Below, one piece after another: positions 1-6,000 of a DNA stretch of 9,004 nt (position 1 is the first letter of the stretch; each line of letters opens with the position of its first letter). Position numbers: made by a program. The stretch spans positions 1-9,004 of the forward strand of contig JAWOFP010000057.1 of NCBI GenBank assembly GCA_046497485.1, read 5' to 3'. The DNA is from Candidatus Nanohaloarchaea archaeon (lineage in GTDB: Archaea > Nanohalarchaeota > Nanosalinia > Nanosalinales > Nanosalinaceae).

Positions 1-3000
1 GATACTCAGGATGGTTATTCCTTAATGGCTCAGAACCGAGAGATTATGTCATCGCATTTCAAGTTCAAGAAAAGCAAGAGCGATCTCGACACACTGGAAG
101 AAATAATTCAGTACTTTGTAACAGATAAAGACGGTTTCAGTGGGCCAGCAAGCATGGAAATGGCATTAGATATCCTTGGATACAGTGTTAAACAGGAAGA
201 GTTTGCTGAAAAGGCCTCAAAGAAAGAAGAGGAAGATTCTGAAGAAGAGGACTCAGAAGACGATTTAGAAGATGAAATAGAGATTACAGAAGAAGATCTA
301 ATGAAGACTGTTGGAGATATAACAGAAGATGAAGTCTTAACAGCTTGGATTGAATCAGAACATATATCAGATGCAGCAAACGAATTCAAGACCTGGTTCA
401 ACGATGGAGGCCTTGTTGTCCCTGCATTTGATAAATCAAAAGTTCTTCCTTCAGAAGATGGCAGCGAGTACGCAGTCGTTGTAGGAGTTGAAGGCACAGA
501 AATCCTGGTAATGGATCCAAGCAGATCTTCAGGAGGCGTATACTATATCAACAAAGATAGGCTGCTGGATGCGATGGAAGATCATGGCTACATTGTTCTT
601 GCTCCGGTAGGCACTCGTTCAGAATGGAGAGTGAAGAATGATCTTATTTACTCGGATAAGAGCTACTATGATGAGCTTTCTAAGAATCTGGAGAATAGGC
701 TGAGAAAGATTGTCAGACAGGGAAGCATCTTGAAGGATGTCATGCCTGAACAAGTTCAGAAGTATACGGAAGAATGGAAATCGGATGAAAAAGTATCCAG
801 AGTATGGAAACCAGAGTGAGGCCTAAACCTTGAAACTCCTGAAAATATCCGACAGTGAACTTGAACAGTTCGATCCTTATTTTGATGAGACAGAGAGAGT
901 AGAGATTTCCGCTGTAGCACCAGAAGTTGTTGATGGAAACTTTGATGTAAAGATTGGGGACTCAAGTATAGGCGATTTCGATGTAGTATATGCAGAAATA
1001 CCTGTGAAAAACGCGGTCTTCGGCAGAGTCATGCTTGAAATGATTGAAGAAGCCCAGATCCCGGTAAATTACTCATCTACAGGATTCTTCCTTTCCGCTA
1101 AGAAAAATTATCAGTACTATACTCTTCACGAACAAGACATTCCAGCGCTGAAGACTGCTGTGGTTGCGACAGAAAAATCTGCTAGAAACCTTGATAAGGA
1201 ACTGAAAGGCCCTATAATTGGAAGAAGATTGGAAGACCTAAAAGAAGTAGAAAATAAGAAACTCGACACGGTAGACAGTATAAAGGCCTTTGCAGATGGT
1301 ACTGAATACAGCGATGAACTATTGATTTTCCATGAGTATCGTAAAGGAGAAAAATACAGATGCCTAGTTATAGATGGAAAAATTATACCTGTACAGGATG
1401 ACTCTGAAGACTGGAGATTTACTGAAGATAATCTAAAATACTCCAATATTTCAGATAAACAGACGGAGATAGTGAAGAAAGCCGTAAAGAGGATAGGAAC
1501 ACCTATGGCTGAAGTACTGATTAGGGGAGAACAGGTCTACGATATCAGGCCTAATCCTGATTTGGAGATGTATACTGATGTTTCAGGTAAAAACGCCTTC
1601 GAGTCAGTAGCTGATATGTTGAAGGAGGAGGCCTCTCAATGAAGTTAGCAGTGGTTTACGGTGAGATCTCCACTAGGCATCAGCAGATTATGGAGAGAGC
1701 CGAAGATATATTTGATTCTGTGCTTGCTGTACCTGTCGATGGATTAAAGTTTGTTCATGGTGAGGAAGATAAAATTCTGTACAAAGATACTGATTTAACA
1801 GACTTTGAGGCAGTCTATATCCGTATTGATGACCGTGACATGATGCTGGCTGAGCACTTAGCTGAAGTATTGAATAACAATGATGTTGTAACTCAGGCTG
1901 CAGATGACACATTCTCATATGACTCAAACAAGTTCTATAACATGAAGGTCTTGGCAGAAAACGGCGTTAAAGTCCCTGACAGCGTATACACATTGTCTCC
2001 TGATGTTGCTGTTTCCGAAGCTAAAAAACTGGGCTATCCAGTAATTATGAAGACGATCAAAGGTGCTGGCGGAGAAGGAGTAATGCGGGCCTCAAGCGAA
2101 AACGAACTGAAGCCTGTTATGGATACGATGAAGTCCTTTGAACAGGAGATCTGCCTTCAGGATTACAAGGAGCATCAGGGAAGCGATACTAGAATGGTGG
2201 TTATAGGAGACTATGTCACAGGTTACGGACGAACAAGCGGTGGAGACGACTGGAGGTCAAATATTTCATCAGGCGGAGAAAGAACAAAGTCTGAACTTTC
2301 AGAGGAGAAAATTGAGACCGCCATTAGGGCAGCCAGAGCTACAGGATTCGACATTTGTGGCTGTGACTTGATTCAGACAGAAGATGGCGAATTCTATATA
2401 CTGGAAGTTAATGCAGCTTTCGCGGTAAGCGATGAAATGAATGAAATAATAGGAGAAGATGTTACTCTAAAACTGGTTGAGAGAATGCATGAAAAAGCCC
2501 AAGAAAAAAGAAGAAAGAACTAGATTTCAGTTATAGCATCCACGATTTTCTTCATCCAAGGCTTCTCCCATTCTTCTTTACGGCCTTCACCATGGTAATA
2601 AACGCCAGGCTGGGAATTTAACTCGACGATCCAAGGCCTTCCATCAGAGTACATGAAATCAACTGTGTAAATACTAGGATTATACTGGTTCAAATTCTTC
2701 CCTACTTCTTCAACTATCTCAAAGATTCTATCCCCCAGTTCATCTAGTTCTACATAGATCTTGCTTCCGCCTAATGCTACATTGCTTAGGAGGCCTTCGT
2801 CAGGAACTCTGAAGTAAGATCCTATAGGTTCGCCGTTCACTACTAAAACTCTGAGGTCGTGAGGACCTTCAATTCCGTACTCAGGCAGATCATCTGACTC
2901 CATAAATCTCTGTACAAGCATATCTTCCGATATAGTTTCAGGCATTTCTTCAATTACCTTGATCCCTTCTCCTGATGAGCCATAACGCGGTTTAAGCACC

Positions 3001-6000
3001 ACTCTGTCGTATTTTTCTAGCATTTCCTCTACATTTTCTTTTGAGCCTTTCCGTGTCTCAGGCAGATAATCTGGGAACTTTCTGTAGGTCTCAAGCTTAT
3101 CCTGACAAAGTTCAGCCACCTCAGAATCATTCAGAATACCGACTTCTTCCTTCATCTCTTTTTTTAACTCATATTTTTCCTCATCGTGCCTGAAAAGATC
3201 ATAGACTCCATTAAGCTCAATATCTTCTAATTTCTCCCACTCTTCACCATTCCAGTGGAAGGCCTTCTCCATTTTCCCATCTTGGTAATGACGGTATTCT
3301 CCGCAAAGGACTTCCACATCTTTTTCTTCCAGCATTTCAGTATACTCAGCGTAATCCTTGTTTTTCCATTCTTTATCGCCGAAAGGCCTGTCTTTACTCC
3401 AGTCTACCTCGTCTTCCCACCAGAGAAAAGCGACCGTTTTCATGCAAACCGTTTCTCGAGCATATTCAAGATATTCCTGATTTTAGGCAGTTCTTTTTCC
3501 TCTTCCTTGACTTCGTGATGGTAATATGTGCCTGGCTTCGAATTTAACTCGACAATCCAAGGCCTTCCGTCTTTATCAAGCATAAAGTCTACGGAGAAAA
3601 TGGCGGGCTGAAAACGCTCAAACTCAGACTTCATGTCCTCAATAATTTCAACTATCTCTTCAAGGAGCTCATCTCTATCCACATAAACTTGGTCTCCGCC
3701 TCTTGAAATATTGCTGATTAGGCCTTCATCAGGGACTCTGACATAGTTCCCGTCCTGAATCTCGCCGTCGATAACAATTGTTCTCAAATCATGAGGGCCT
3801 TCAACACCGAGTTCTGGAATACCATCAGTCTCAATAAAGGCTTGTAAAATGAAATGCTCAGAGTTTTCCGGTTCCTCAAATTCTTCAACTGATTCAATTA
3901 TTTCTACTCCTTCCCCCGCAAATCCGTATCGCGGTTTGAAAACTACTTTACCGTACTGTTTCAGCATTTCCTCTATATTTTCTTTTGAGGCCTCTCGGGT
4001 TTCTGGTACATAATCAGGGAAGAGCTGGTAGGTCTTTAGTTTATCCTTGCAGATTTCCTCAAGTTCGGTATCATTTAGAATTCCTACTTCTTCAGAAATC
4101 TTTTGCTTTAATTTTTTGGTCTCAGGATCATATTTGAACTTGTCATAAACTCCGTCAAGCTCGATATTTTCTGATTTTTCCCATTCTTTTCCGTTCCAGT
4201 GAAAGGCTTTGTTGAGGCCTCCATTAGAGTACCACTGATAGTTGGCTATGAAAATATTCAGATTAAGATCTTTTCCCAGTTCAGTGTACTTTGCAAAGTC
4301 TTTGCTTCTTTCTCCTCCGAAAGGATCTTCCCGATCCCATTCAACTTCCTTATCCCAGAGAATCCCTATATTCTTCATAAAAATTATTTTGAACTCAGCA
4401 TTCTTAATAGATTTAGCAGCGAACTAGAAAGTATGAAACCGGAAAATCCTGAAGTAAAGGAAAAAATAGCTTACCAAGAATTAGAGTTAGAGTTCTCGGA
4501 AGAAAATCTATTCGAAGAACTTTACGAAATGATAGAAGTTCTGACGGGAGAGGCTAACTGGGGTCAAAACATTAATATCAAAAACAGAGAAGAGCAGAAA
4601 AAGGCCTTTCAGGAAGCCAGAGAAAATGGAGAAAAATGGGATCCGGATTTTGAGTTCAAAGATACTGGAAAAGATTTCCGGGCTTTGAAGAATAATATTG
4701 ATCAATGCATAGAGGCCTCAAATAATATTTCAGAGGAAAATATGGGTGATGCAGGATTTGAAGTTTTAACTCCTGAAGACTTGCAAGACTTCTTCAAGGA
4801 ATCTTTCCGTGAATTAAGGCTTTATGTAGATTTAGCTGAGAATATTGAAGGCAGAGAGGCCTGGAAAGAAGTTAGTGAGAAAATCTGGCCGATGATTTCC
4901 AAAGGAGAATATCAGAATTCTTTGGAAGAAATAGAAGGCCTAGAAAATAGAGAAAGTGAGAAGGTTCTAGATGCAGAGGATGTCAAGGAAATGTTTGAAG
5001 AAGAGATTGAGAGATTAGGTTTTGGCTACAGTGTGGAGGTCAGAGAGGTTTCGGGCTGCTTTAATGCTCCTGAAGAGAGAACTGTTGTAGTTGCAAAAGG
5101 AACTGATTCAGAGAGATTTTACTCAAAAGAAGAGGCTGAAATGCTTACAAAACACGAAATTTTCCATGTAGTGAGAGGTATCAACGGTAGAAATATCTCG
5201 GATAACTTCCCTGAAGTTCTCGGAATTCATTCTCCATTTTACGATCAGACAGAGGAAGGCGGCGCACTCTACCGCGAGAGAAAGACTAACACGAATTTTG
5301 AGGCAAAAGACTTTGACTACCATCTACGGTTAATCGCTGCTTACAAAATGAGTCAAGGCGAGACCTTCCATGATGTAATCGAGGATTTACTTGAACTAGG
5401 AGGATCATTAGACAGGAGCTTCTACTTAGTTGCGAGAAATAGAGAGGCCTTAAGACATCATATATACCTCTCTGGTATCAAGGACTGGAATGAAAATAAC
5501 ACTGAAAAACTGTTGATTGGAAAACTGAATTCTGAATGGGCGGGAAAATTCTGGGAAGAAGTAGAAAACGGCAGCTTTAACAGGCCTGAAATAGATTCGG
5601 AGGCGCTTTTCCAATGAGAGATGTGCTTCTTGACACTAACTTTCTGACCGCGCCTTTCCAGATGAATGTCTCTATATTTGAGGAGATAGATGAAAAGTAT
5701 CCGGGAAACAGAGTCTTCACATTGGACCGCGTAATTGAAGAAGCAAAAAGTATTGAAGACGGAAAATATGGAGGCCTGATCGAAAAACTAGTTGAGTCTG
5801 AAGATGTTCAAGTCTTGGAAACAAAGGGTAATGGGTTTGTGGATGACTTGTTAGTTGATTTATCTGATGAATTCTTGATCGCGACAAATGATAGAGAGCT
5901 CAAGAACAGGATTTTGGACAAGGGCAGGCCTGTTATGTATATCAGATCGGAGAGCCATATTGTGGTAGAGAATGAGGATTTGATGTGACGGAGTCATTTA

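Follow-up and report, generated by a model that had tools for sequence, protein, structure and literature searches.

A channel-linked RimK-MATCAP cassette of a nanohaloarchaeon as a possible morph of a phylum-wide build-and-trim system for acidic peptides

The window analysed here is the entire 9004-bp contig C58. All five ORFs placed between positions 830 and 5617 by a preliminary description were found at those positions (Table 1). Overlaps of 4 nt occur between the stop of g01019 and the start of the RimK gene, between the 3' ends of the convergent genes for RimK and YheCD-type ligase 1, and between the end of the MATCAP gene and the start of PIN_9. The gene of the membrane protein (MEM) is truncated at the contig start, and its N-terminal half lies on contig C22 (positions 3-935, minus strand). 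The start of the MATCAP gene was set at ATG 4433, the Met at which the alignment with its relatives begins; a GTG-initiated ORF from 4199 overlaps the gene next to it. By eye, the intergenic region contains a TTAATA (4404-4409) about 25 nt from each of the two start codons, which may be a bidirectional archaeal promoter common to ligase 2 and MATCAP. PIN_9, followed in the window by the Rpo7 gene, opens PIN9-Rpo7-Spt4-S24e-Kae1-Sua5, a conserved block at the border of the cassette; judged by synteny across the fetched loci, it is outside the system. The same loci bear out an earlier caveat that the Rpo7 neighbourhood is the usual gene block.

Table 1. Features of the window and the basis of their assignment
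Feature	Position	Strand	Basis
MscS-type channel fused to a C39 papain-like domain (MEM), C-terminal 272 aa	1..819	+	Pfam, profile, model
g01019, pseudo-RimK (predicted catalytically dead RimK paralogue)	830..1642	+	hhalign vs RimK
g01020, RimK-type alpha-L-glutamate ligase	1639..2523	+	PF08443
YheCD-type ATP-grasp ligase 1	2520..3443	-	Pfam
YheCD-type ATP-grasp ligase 2, local TTL-like C-terminal motif	3440..4378	-	Pfam
Divergent intergenic region, 54 bp	4379..4432	.	Sequence inspection
MATCAP/DUF1704-family zinc carboxypeptidase, divergent, 394 aa	4433..5617	+	PF08014
PIN_9 gene	5614..5988	+	PF18477, 45.8 bits

RimK matched PF08443 with 111.7 bits (111.3 in the preliminary description) and TIGR00768 with 138 bits (cut-off 143.4), and it fell far short of the NCBIfam S6-glutamate ligase equivalog (87.5 bits, cut-off 331). 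Its best solved relatives by profile were the RimK enzymes of E. coli (5zct/4iwx, E 1.5e-40) and Pseudomonas (7qys/7qyr). The residues K138, G142, G144, G145, G147, D243, E256 and N258 were invariant in the alignment, and the enzyme looks active. The preceding gene, g01019, had been left as an unassigned ORF, and the Pfam search indeed gave no match. However, hhalign aligned it with RimK over its full length (probability 99.5%, E 1e-22, identity 17%), and weak RimK/MptN matches appeared in NCBIfam. Neither the Gly-rich loop of RimK nor its Mg site of Asp, Glu and Asn is kept, and the residues mark g01019 as a catalytically dead RimK paralogue.

Both remaining ligases are YheCD-type by Pfam. 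Ligase 1 scored 53.8 bits with ATPgrasp_YheCD, 53.5 with ATP-grasp_3, 33.3 with RimK and 18.4 with TTL, the last under its cut-off of 20.1; K148, R150, G155, D264 and E277 were invariant and N279 was near-invariant (alignment A5), and the best solved matches were ArgX (3vpb, 1.8e-9) and GshB (1gsa, 6e-7). Ligase 2 scored 71.3 bits with YheCD, 41.9 with ATP-grasp_3 and 31.7 with RimK. The faint TTL match noticed earlier in this protein amounted to 32.3 bits and was confined to residues 259-290, and local TTLL6/7 matches were also found (E about 1e-5).

In the membrane protein, the window fragment matched Peptidase_C39_2 with 22.1 bits. Full-length relatives matched MS_channel_2nd (31-38 bits), Peptidase_C39_2 (28-36 bits) and Peptidase_C39 (22-31 bits, over the cut-off in 2 of the 3 matching), and the family profile matched E. 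coli MscS (2vv5) with an E of 5e-11. The N-terminal part of the model resembled MscS and the C-terminal part the C39 domains of ComA and PCAT1 (TM 0.74-0.78), with the glutathione-cleaving Alr0975 also among the fold neighbours of the C39 domain. In the catalytic columns of the window protein, Gln is replaced by Asp, Cys by Ser and His by Glu, with only the Asp kept, and the domain is accordingly a predicted pseudo-peptidase. Relatives fell into an "intact" group, in which Gln, Cys, His and Asp were each present in 29/29 sequences, and a "lost" group (n=30), in which all 30 kept Asp but Gln and Cys were each kept by 3 and His by 4. Sequence conservation persists in the dead C39 domain, whose mean pairwise identity is 49%, the channel part having 41-42%.

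The ORF ending at 5617 matched MATCAP (PF08014) over model positions 29-271 of 365 with 47.2 bits in the window search (cut-off 27); the whole-genome search reproduced the 44.9 bits given before. The HExxH...E site is intact, the HEIFH lying at 241-245 counted from the Met at 4433, as already described. Over 30 sequences, H241, E242, H245, R248, N251, G252, Y270, E275, G276, E282, R335, Y345 and K364 were invariant. The profile matched human KIAA0895L (7z5g, E 1.4e-15), and the predicted model (pLDDT 95.2) could be superimposed on human MATCAP, which trims tubulin, with a Z of 19.1 and an rmsd of 3.1 over 263 residues at 16% identity. The RimK and YheCD-type ligases and the peptidase thus look catalytically competent, and the earlier picture of RimK and two YheCD-type enzymes beside a MATCAP with an intact HExxH holds.

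We compared this arrangement across 70 genomes of the phylum Nanohaloarchaeota. RimK was present in 65/70 (27/28 high-quality ones), and the order MEM, g01019-type gene and RimK, then PIN9 and Rpo7, recurred at every fetched MEM-bearing locus (58 loci and the window). The sole RimK-anchored locus without the triad, L108, is a second copy in genome G049, whose other copy (L109) has it. The channel-C39 protein, the dead RimK and RimK are therefore a core, and the accessory genes after RimK are exchanged. In the 48 loci with a complete slot, the 24 C39-intact ones held GCS2-like genes in 13, P-loop genes in 10 and MATCAP in none, whereas the 24 C39-lost ones, the window among them, held MATCAP in 18, Yhe-type genes in 20 and neither GCS2-like nor P-loop genes. 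By family, the occupants other than those of the window include YbdK/GCS2-like ligases and AstE/AspA-type amidohydrolases, and the ligases of a locus number as many as five, drawn from three families. A MATCAP of the window type or located in the cassette was tabulated for 24 genomes, all of them C39-lost, and for none of the 29 that are C39-intact. Five genomes (G022, G044, G063, G064 and G066) combined a dead C39 with no MATCAP found; the contigs of G022, G044 and G066 break off within the cassette or right after it, and G063 is 99% complete.

MATCAP joined the cassette on two occasions, its copies there forming two distinct clades with long stems. The RimK tree likewise shows two real origins for loss of the C39 dyad. 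Of 10 independent pairs with different dyad states on the tree of the flanking aIF2-gamma, MATCAP differed the same way in 8, the opposite way in 0 and not at all in 2. Morph state changed 13 times on the aIF2-gamma tree, as opposed to 3 on the RimK tree. Since the cassette moves as a unit, the association rests on two origins and linkage rather than on many independent events. The earlier view of three ligases flanking MATCAP as one system stands in part: the shared 54-bp divergent region and the restriction of window-type or cassette-located MATCAP to C39-lost genomes make them appear to be one functional unit, but the locus is one morph of the phylum-wide core. RimK, with its 65/70, does not depend on MATCAP, which was found in 37/70 genomes at E<=0.001 (34 over the cut-off; slightly different from the 28 of 69 counted before).

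We propose, with a probability of about 0.45, that the window represents one morph of a channel-tethered system, spread throughout the Nanohaloarchaeota, that would build and trim short acidic (glutamyl) peptides. RimK, probably in partnership with the dead paralogue, and the two YheCD ligases would add glutamate or a similar residue to a free carboxylate in an ATP-driven reaction where the channel faces the cytoplasm. The acceptor would be a small molecule, either free glutamate or an oligopeptide, which the dead C39 domain may hold. MATCAP would strip residues from the C-terminal end. Its usual presence where Gln, Cys and His of C39 are lost, and never where they are intact, makes it look like a replacement for the hydrolase that the channel's own C39 domain would supply in other morphs. 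Our literature search found no paper on a channel-linked RimK ligase-MATCAP cassette. A comparable set, as outlined in the source reports, is RloABC of Pseudomonas aeruginosa, with a RimK-like ATP-grasp ligase, a membrane protein with an inactive transglutaminase (papain-superfamily) domain and a polyglutamate-cleaving peptidase; it is linked to hypo-osmotic stress, to which the mutants are sensitive, and its substrate is described as not known (PMC11957051 / PMC12239564). Compared by description, both membrane proteins carry an inactive papain-like domain. However, the membrane part is an MscS-type channel in the window and a 7TM protein in RloABC, the peptidase is a cytosolic zinc carboxypeptidase as opposed to a secreted retropepsin, and other archaeal morphs carry a C39 that is intact by its residues. 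A link between an MscS-type valve and ligase and peptidase chemistry points to a part in glutamate/counter-ion or osmotic homeostasis, such as has been discussed for Rlo.

The nature of the acceptor separates this proposal from an archaeal protein tail code, in which uS4, uL24, uS17, Rpo7 and also eS6 would receive Glu or other residues at their C-termini from the ligases and be trimmed by MATCAP. The RimK/RimB system (RimABK; Pseudomonas, E. coli) carries out glutamylation of bS6 and its reversal, and there too a RimK gene lies beside that of a peptidase able to remove C-terminal glutamates. In contrast, the searches found neither bS6 nor a RimB-family retropepsin in the window genome, the host is archaeal, erasure would fall to a MATCAP-fold metallopeptidase, and a dead RimK twin, two YheCD-type ligases and the MscS-C39 partner are added. 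To our knowledge, RimK has one physiological substrate, the protein bS6, and MATCAP likewise acts on protein tails. The best solved relatives of the window RimK are S6-modifying enzymes, and its ATP-grasp ligases beside a MATCAP-fold HExxH...E carboxypeptidase recall the tubulin tail enzymes (TTL/TTLL with MATCAP KIAA0895L/TMCP), as do the strong MATCAP fold match and the TTL-like motif of ligase 2. The ligases nevertheless score higher as YheCD, ATP-grasp_3 or GshB-like than as TTL, and the identity to human MATCAP is 16%. TMCP/MATCAP enzymes are described as also deglutamylating (PMC10499314).

The cassette does sit in a translation/transcription gene block: eS6, two genes upstream, ends in Glu in 36/48 readable loci, and the Rpo7 tail was acidic in 17/17 first-round loci. 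The acidic ends to which the preliminary description pointed are real in uS4 (...EESEEEEE) and in Rpo7 (...EEDEEEE), encoded after PIN_9 two genes downstream, but as substrates these tails, with those of uL24 and uS17, gained no specific support. A final E is found in 149 of the roughly 1033 proteins from ORF calling, and a final EE in 37; the S6e...Rpo7 neighbourhood is a conserved block that flanks the cassette at every locus; and eS6, Rpo7 and the channel protein vary in their last residues among relatives with the same ligases. No conserved C-terminal Glu was found among the cassette proteins of the relatives compared. RimK is also kept in genomes lacking MATCAP, and MATCAP occurs without ligases. 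Furthermore, the slot families annotated for small-molecule substrates (GCS2/YbdK-like, AstE/AspA-like) would speak for a small peptide no less than for a protein tail, and RimK is described as making free poly-alpha-glutamate in vitro (PMC11957051). The Alr0975 fold likeness and the Rlo phenotype also lean this way. We consider a tail code rather unlikely, and a small-molecule acceptor more likely than ribosomal or RNA-polymerase protein tails.

Alternatively, the ligases could build a hetero-oligopeptide metabolite that the channel-C39 protein processes and releases via its MscS-like pore, with MATCAP maturing or recycling the peptide. Like peptidase-containing ABC transporters (ComA, PCAT1), whose C39 domains are its closest fold matches, the membrane protein would attach a papain-like domain to a membrane conduit where this faces the cytoplasm. 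In some exporters, C39-like domains that are catalytically dead are known still to bind cargo. The number of ligases at a locus and the frequent exchange of morphs between lineages fit such a product; frequent exchange would generally be expected of interaction or niche genes more than of housekeeping genes. Interaction with the haloarchaeal host is one purpose that can be imagined. However, the conduit is an MscS-family channel, and we know of no MscS channels that export peptides. No gene for a precursor or leader-peptide substrate, nor a leader motif, was seen in the window, where genes abut or overlap, and C39 is dead in half of the loci. We regard peptide export as improbable.

MATCAP is itself independent of the ligases in that lone copies exist. 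Those of both subtypes, the window's included, are found close to the P0/P1 stalk genes and AlaRS, where the fetched flanks showed no window-type ATP-grasp gene, and the window-type was found outside the cassette near stalk-protein genes in at least 5 genomes. Outside the phylum, 0/10 related loci had a RimK/Yhe-type neighbour within 5 kb. That MATCAP is a general cytosolic carboxypeptidase landed in what is clearly a recombination hot spot, functionally untied to the ligases, is nonetheless improbable in the face of the complete, one-directional exclusion between it and an intact C39 dyad, two separate recruitments with a long branch each, the divergent region common to MATCAP and ligase 2, and the MATCAP-RimK pairing tabulated earlier in many unrelated genomes.

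The window, contig C58 (9004 bp), belongs to a 0.97-Mb genome (G000; 97% complete, 41.5% G+C). Re-checking its ORFs and Pfam matches bore out the coordinates and scores that the preliminary description had given for the RimK/YheCD/MATCAP locus. MATCAP is followed by PIN_9, Rpo7, Spt4, S24e, Kae1 and Sua5, in that order, and adjacent genes share 4-nt overlaps at 1639-1642, 2520-2523, 3440-3443 and 5614-5617. The three RimK-family matches and the single MATCAP match of the whole genome all lie in the window. The cassette genes abut or overlap, and between them the coding strands hold no ORF of at least 60 aa that might encode a LysW-like carrier or a precursor peptide. 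A built-in substrate, namely a cassette protein always ending in Glu, was also considered; in the channel protein, g01019, the ligases and MATCAP, the C-terminal ends are variable or non-acidic, and this idea was therefore abandoned.

Features of the cassette and related loci (C, contigs of G000; L, loci of relatives; plain numbers, window positions)
Feature	Location	Strand	Match or remark
5'-truncated ORF (C-terminal part of channel protein)	1-819	+	weak Peptidase_C39_2 match
g01019	830-1642	+	no Pfam match; full-length RimK homologue
RimK	1639-2523	+	PF08443, 111.7 bits (cut-off 21)
YheCD/ATP-grasp_3-type ligase 1	2520-3443	-	Pfam
YheCD/ATP-grasp_3-type ligase 2	3440-4378	-	Pfam; bears 32-residue TTL-like match
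MATCAP-family protein	4433-5617	+	MATCAP/DUF1704 PF08014, 47.2 bits (cut-off 27)
Channel gene, N-terminal half	C22:3-935	-	start of C22
aIF2-gamma	C22:967-2331
eS6	C22:2145-2513
S24e-type acidic module	6824-7282; C37:15394-16317; C62:37266-37715; L046:12962-13717; L051:2080-2958
P-loop slot protein, examples	L070:5964-6980; L073:7566-8615; L083:5919-6959; L086:7598-8632
AstE/AspA-type amidohydrolase genes	C10:16687-17094; C17:27900-28217		outside the cassette
Stalk region of G000	C40:1-1778
Stalk-region MATCAP loci	L035, L037, L052, L053, L055, L059, L060, L062		relatives

The truncated ORF at the start of the window is the end of a channel protein. The closest relative has a 501-aa membrane protein encoded upstream, and full-length relatives scored 31-38 bits for MS_channel_2nd and 38.9 for MS_channel_1st_1, which places them in the MscS family, as well as scoring for Peptidase_C39_2 and C39. 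The channel profile aligned to residues 98-175 of E. coli MscS (TM3 and the β-domain). In the model, the N-terminal part resembled MscS and the C-terminal part the C39 domains of ComA and PCAT1, with looser fold matches of the latter to the phytochelatin-synthase-like Alr0975 of Nostoc and to PeiR. The MscS-C39 architecture was present in all of the best 120 of 222 relatives from a database search; those with an organism in the source name were of Nanohaloarchaea type, save one labelled Aenigmatarchaeota. The C39 domain of the window scored 22.1 bits, under the cut-off of 24, compared to 28-36 bits for relatives with all four catalytic-site residues. Its papain-like fold is present in the model, but the Gln/Cys/His/Asp columns read Asp, Ser, Glu and Asp, and the domain thus lacks the complete catalytic set of Peptidase C39 (PF03412/PF13529). 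The N-terminal half of the gene lies on C22, so the gene is broken by the assembly and not in the cell. The ends of C22 and C58 share about 60 residues of the channel profile (positions 245-306), and together with the aIF2-gamma and eS6 genes beyond the channel half this indicates that the two contigs are adjacent in the genome.

RimK clearly belongs to its Pfam family, although it scored slightly below the cut-off of TIGR00768 (138.0 versus 143.4 bits). Its profile matched the solved RimK structures of E. coli (E 1.5e-40) and Pseudomonas (2e-38), and ArgX and LysX less well. The ATP-grasp motif residues K138, G142, G144, G145, G147, D243, E256 and N258 were invariant in 18 sequences with a mean column identity of 69%, and the alignment with E. 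coli RimK (5zct) showed that the Lys, the Gly-rich loop and the Asp/Glu/Asn Mg site are all kept. For the bS6--L-glutamate ligase equivalog NF007764, the score was 87.5 bits where the cut-off is 331, and bS6 itself (PF01250) had no match in the 97%-complete genome. The neighbouring g01019, which had no Pfam match, aligned with RimK over its full length (hhalign 99.5%, 17% identity). Its 11 invariant columns include none at the Gly-rich loop or the Mg site; because these sites are not conserved, its sequence identifies it as a RimK paralogue that is predicted to be dead.

A profile search of representatives retrieved 20 of the g01019 family proper at E<=1e-30. Beyond them lay RimK-like proteins of 270-310 aa that matched less strongly (P0138-P0170); among 10 sampled, eight exceeded the RimK Pfam cut-off (22.6-52 bits), one scored slightly under it (20.8) and one had no match. 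Dead RimK twins may thus be more widespread than this family. In a pattern scan of genome contigs for g01019 beyond the phylum, all 27 loci were on Nanohaloarchaea-type records, one of them labelled as a Colwellia MAG. A full nanohaloarchaeal cassette (L113, on the same contig as L038) stands under a record titled Colwellia polaris MAG, which is probably mis-binned or mislabelled.

The two further ligases matched the YheC/D-like ATP-grasp family PF14398 (53.8 and 71.3 bits, cut-off 26.8). They keep the catalytic residues of this type, K148, R150, G155, D264 and E277 being invariant and N279 nearly so. The nearest solved relatives were ArgX and glutathione synthetase, while TTLL6/7 matched locally with E of about 1e-5. 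The match to TTL (PF03133, cut-off 20.1) in ligase 2 reached 32.3 bits and was confined to residues 259-290 (model 236-267 of 292); ligase 1 stayed under the cut-off at 18.4 bits.

The profile of the MATCAP homologue found human KIAA0895L (7z5g) at E 1.4e-15, and its model (pLDDT 95.2) was structurally closest to human MATCAP (7z5g_A; Z 19.1, with an rmsd of 3.1 across 263 residues); DUF885 followed at Z 15.4 and M32 carboxypeptidases at about 10. The gluzincin site H241, E242 and H245 with E275-G276 (TEEGGA) did not vary among 30 sequences from three subtypes, and neither did several Arg, Lys and Tyr residues. The roles of the site residues were assigned from the family literature, and E281A, E329A and E364A mutants are reported as inactive in PMC10499314. 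The proteobacterial QEGLA-motif equivalog TIGR02421 scored 51.7 bits against a cut-off of 338.65, compared to 193.4 for a canonical MATCAP relative within the phylum. The sequences formed three clades: one canonical, one of the window type and one of a second cassette type. The last two, the cassette types, have long stems. None of 10 canonical relatives beyond the phylum, a small sample picked by one peptide pattern, had RimK- or Yhe-type neighbours.

Of the 70 genomes of the phylum, 65 had RimK (27 of the 28 of high quality) and 37 had MATCAP. We fetched 77 regions around these hits and scored their ORFs, which were called heuristically in the relatives, with phmmer and with profiles built for this analysis. 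The order channel-C39, g01019, RimK was found in 58/58 fetched channel-bearing loci and in the window. Where the contig was long enough, this core was preceded by eS6 and aIF2-gamma and followed by PIN9-Rpo7-Spt4-S24e-Kae1-Sua5. The sole RimK-anchored locus without the triad (L108) was a second RimK copy in one genome (G049). Only the stretch from RimK to PIN9 varied. This slot can hold a GCS2/YbdK-like ligase, a P-loop protein of 340 aa, one to three YheCD-type ligases, an AstE/AspA-type amidohydrolase, a second RimK-like gene or MATCAP.

The content of the slot followed the state of the C39 domain. Gln, Cys, His and Asp were all present in 29/29 proteins of the intact group, whereas in the lost group (30 proteins, including one truncated and one partly truncated ORF) Gln and Cys were each kept in 3, His in 4 and Asp in all 30. 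The dead C39 domain nevertheless showed 49% identity, compared to 41-42% for the channel part. All 24 tabulated genomes with a window-subtype MATCAP or any cassette MATCAP fell in the lost group; such genes occurred in none of the 29 intact genomes, eight of which carry a canonical MATCAP elsewhere. Among 48 loci with the slot complete on the contig (24 intact and 24 lost), MATCAP occupied 0 intact and 18 lost loci, the GCS2-like ligase 13 and 0 (profile built on 5 sequences), the P-loop protein 10 and 0 (profile built on 4), Yhe-type ligases 9 and 20, and the AstE-type enzyme 2 and 4. We read this distribution as MATCAP having probably taken over twice from the C39 domain as the hydrolase of the system.

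The P-loop protein of the slot is conserved, carries the motif SRMDAGKTT and had no Pfam or NCBIfam match. The AstE/AspA-type enzyme lies inside the cassette in other families of the phylum, and G000 has two such genes outside its cassette.

On the RimK tree, the lost state required three changes, one of them an artefact, and the same-genus genomes G000 and G026 were separated from G023-G025 between the two deepest clades. On the tree of the flanking aIF2-gamma, the dyad state called for 13 changes, and at least 10 of these fell on branches with good support. Together with the split of same-genus genomes, these counts indicate that whole morphs were repeatedly exchanged between lineages at one locus. 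Among ten independent host pairs differing in dyad state, MATCAP differed in the same direction in eight and in the opposite direction in none (sign test, p = 0.008). Since the cassette travels as a unit, this result reflects linkage and retention, not repeated co-evolution.

The comparisons establish the domain identities, the apparent catalytic competence or death of the proteins, their conservation and their complementary distribution. We propose that RimK, its dead twin and the extra ligases would assemble a short acidic peptide on the channel's cytoplasmic side, and that MATCAP would trim this peptide from the C-terminus. We favour a small molecule as the acceptor, because the alternative slot occupants come from families with small-molecule substrates in their annotation, a terminal Glu is not conserved in any cassette protein, RimK can make free poly-α-Glu, and an analogous system is known. 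According to PMC11957051, which also covers the free polymer, the Pseudomonas Rlo system combines an ATP-grasp enzyme with a membrane protein whose papain-superfamily domain is inactive and with a peptidase that cleaves polyGlu; the genome encodes no polyGlu substrate for this system, which shows a hypo-osmotic phenotype. Unlike RimABK and RloABC, the system in G000 comes without a RimB/RloA-type retropepsin: PF05618 had no match in this genome, whereas the controls Haloferax volcanii and Methanosarcina acetivorans matched.

The preliminary description had instead proposed protein tails as targets, naming the acidic C-termini of uS4, uL24, uS17 and Rpo7. Protein tails are possible targets, but those named are unspecific, since a C-terminal E occurs in 149 of about 1033 proteins and a C-terminal EE in 37. 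In its full form, TTL-like ligases and a MATCAP-type carboxypeptidase would write and erase a reversible C-terminal code on archaeal translation or transcription proteins, with the channel as a membrane-anchored regulator, and the tubulin-code pairing would have existed in archaea; we consider this unlikely. The candidates would be eS6 (...EE), Rpo7 (...EEEE) and the P1 stalk protein (...GLGSMF), which has an acidic tail with an aromatic last residue, just as the tail of α-tubulin ends in Tyr.

We know of no function for prokaryotic MATCAP/DUF1704 proteins or archaeal RimK enzymes. Our literature searches gave no relevant paper on prokaryotic DUF1704/MATCAP with ATP-grasp enzymes or on Nanohaloarchaea with RimK; RimK-like/DUF1704 (COG3930) neighbourhoods may have been described earlier in the comparative amidoligase survey of Iyer et al. 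2009 (Mol Biosyst 5:1636). The available portion of PMC10499314 mentions neither prokaryotes, archaea, DUF nor RimK. Judged by its genes, the locus would provide a defined, expressible enzyme set, consisting of one live RimK, its dead counterpart, two further ligases and a carboxypeptidase, and the morphs of sister genomes with a predicted active C39 peptidase in place of MATCAP serve as natural experiments. If the proposal is true, a glutamyl peptide that is synthesised and degraded at a mechanosensitive-type channel would be a new coupling of peptide chemistry to ion or osmotic homeostasis in extreme halophiles, and such a product would also illuminate the unexplained Rlo system; should protein tails be the targets, the locus would be an archaeal counterpart to the tubulin tail code.

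The cassette started directly after aIF2-gamma in all loci examined (in G000, on C22). CDC123, a eukaryotic ATP-grasp protein, binds eIF2-gamma according to PMC4431377; nothing that we saw relates g01019 to CDC123, and the adjacency is a lead only. S24e has an acidic C-terminal extension (...NKNRTTLIDWLEDQI), and this module reappears in other, longer ORFs of G000 and its relatives. Non-cassette MATCAP genes, canonical and of the window subtype, lie in the stalk region L1 - L10(P0) - P1 - AlaRS, some of them directly between P0 and P1. P1 tails read ...EEEAAEGLGS(L/M)F, acidic with an aromatic last residue, and by analogy with α-tubulin it is conceivable that they serve as a MATCAP substrate.
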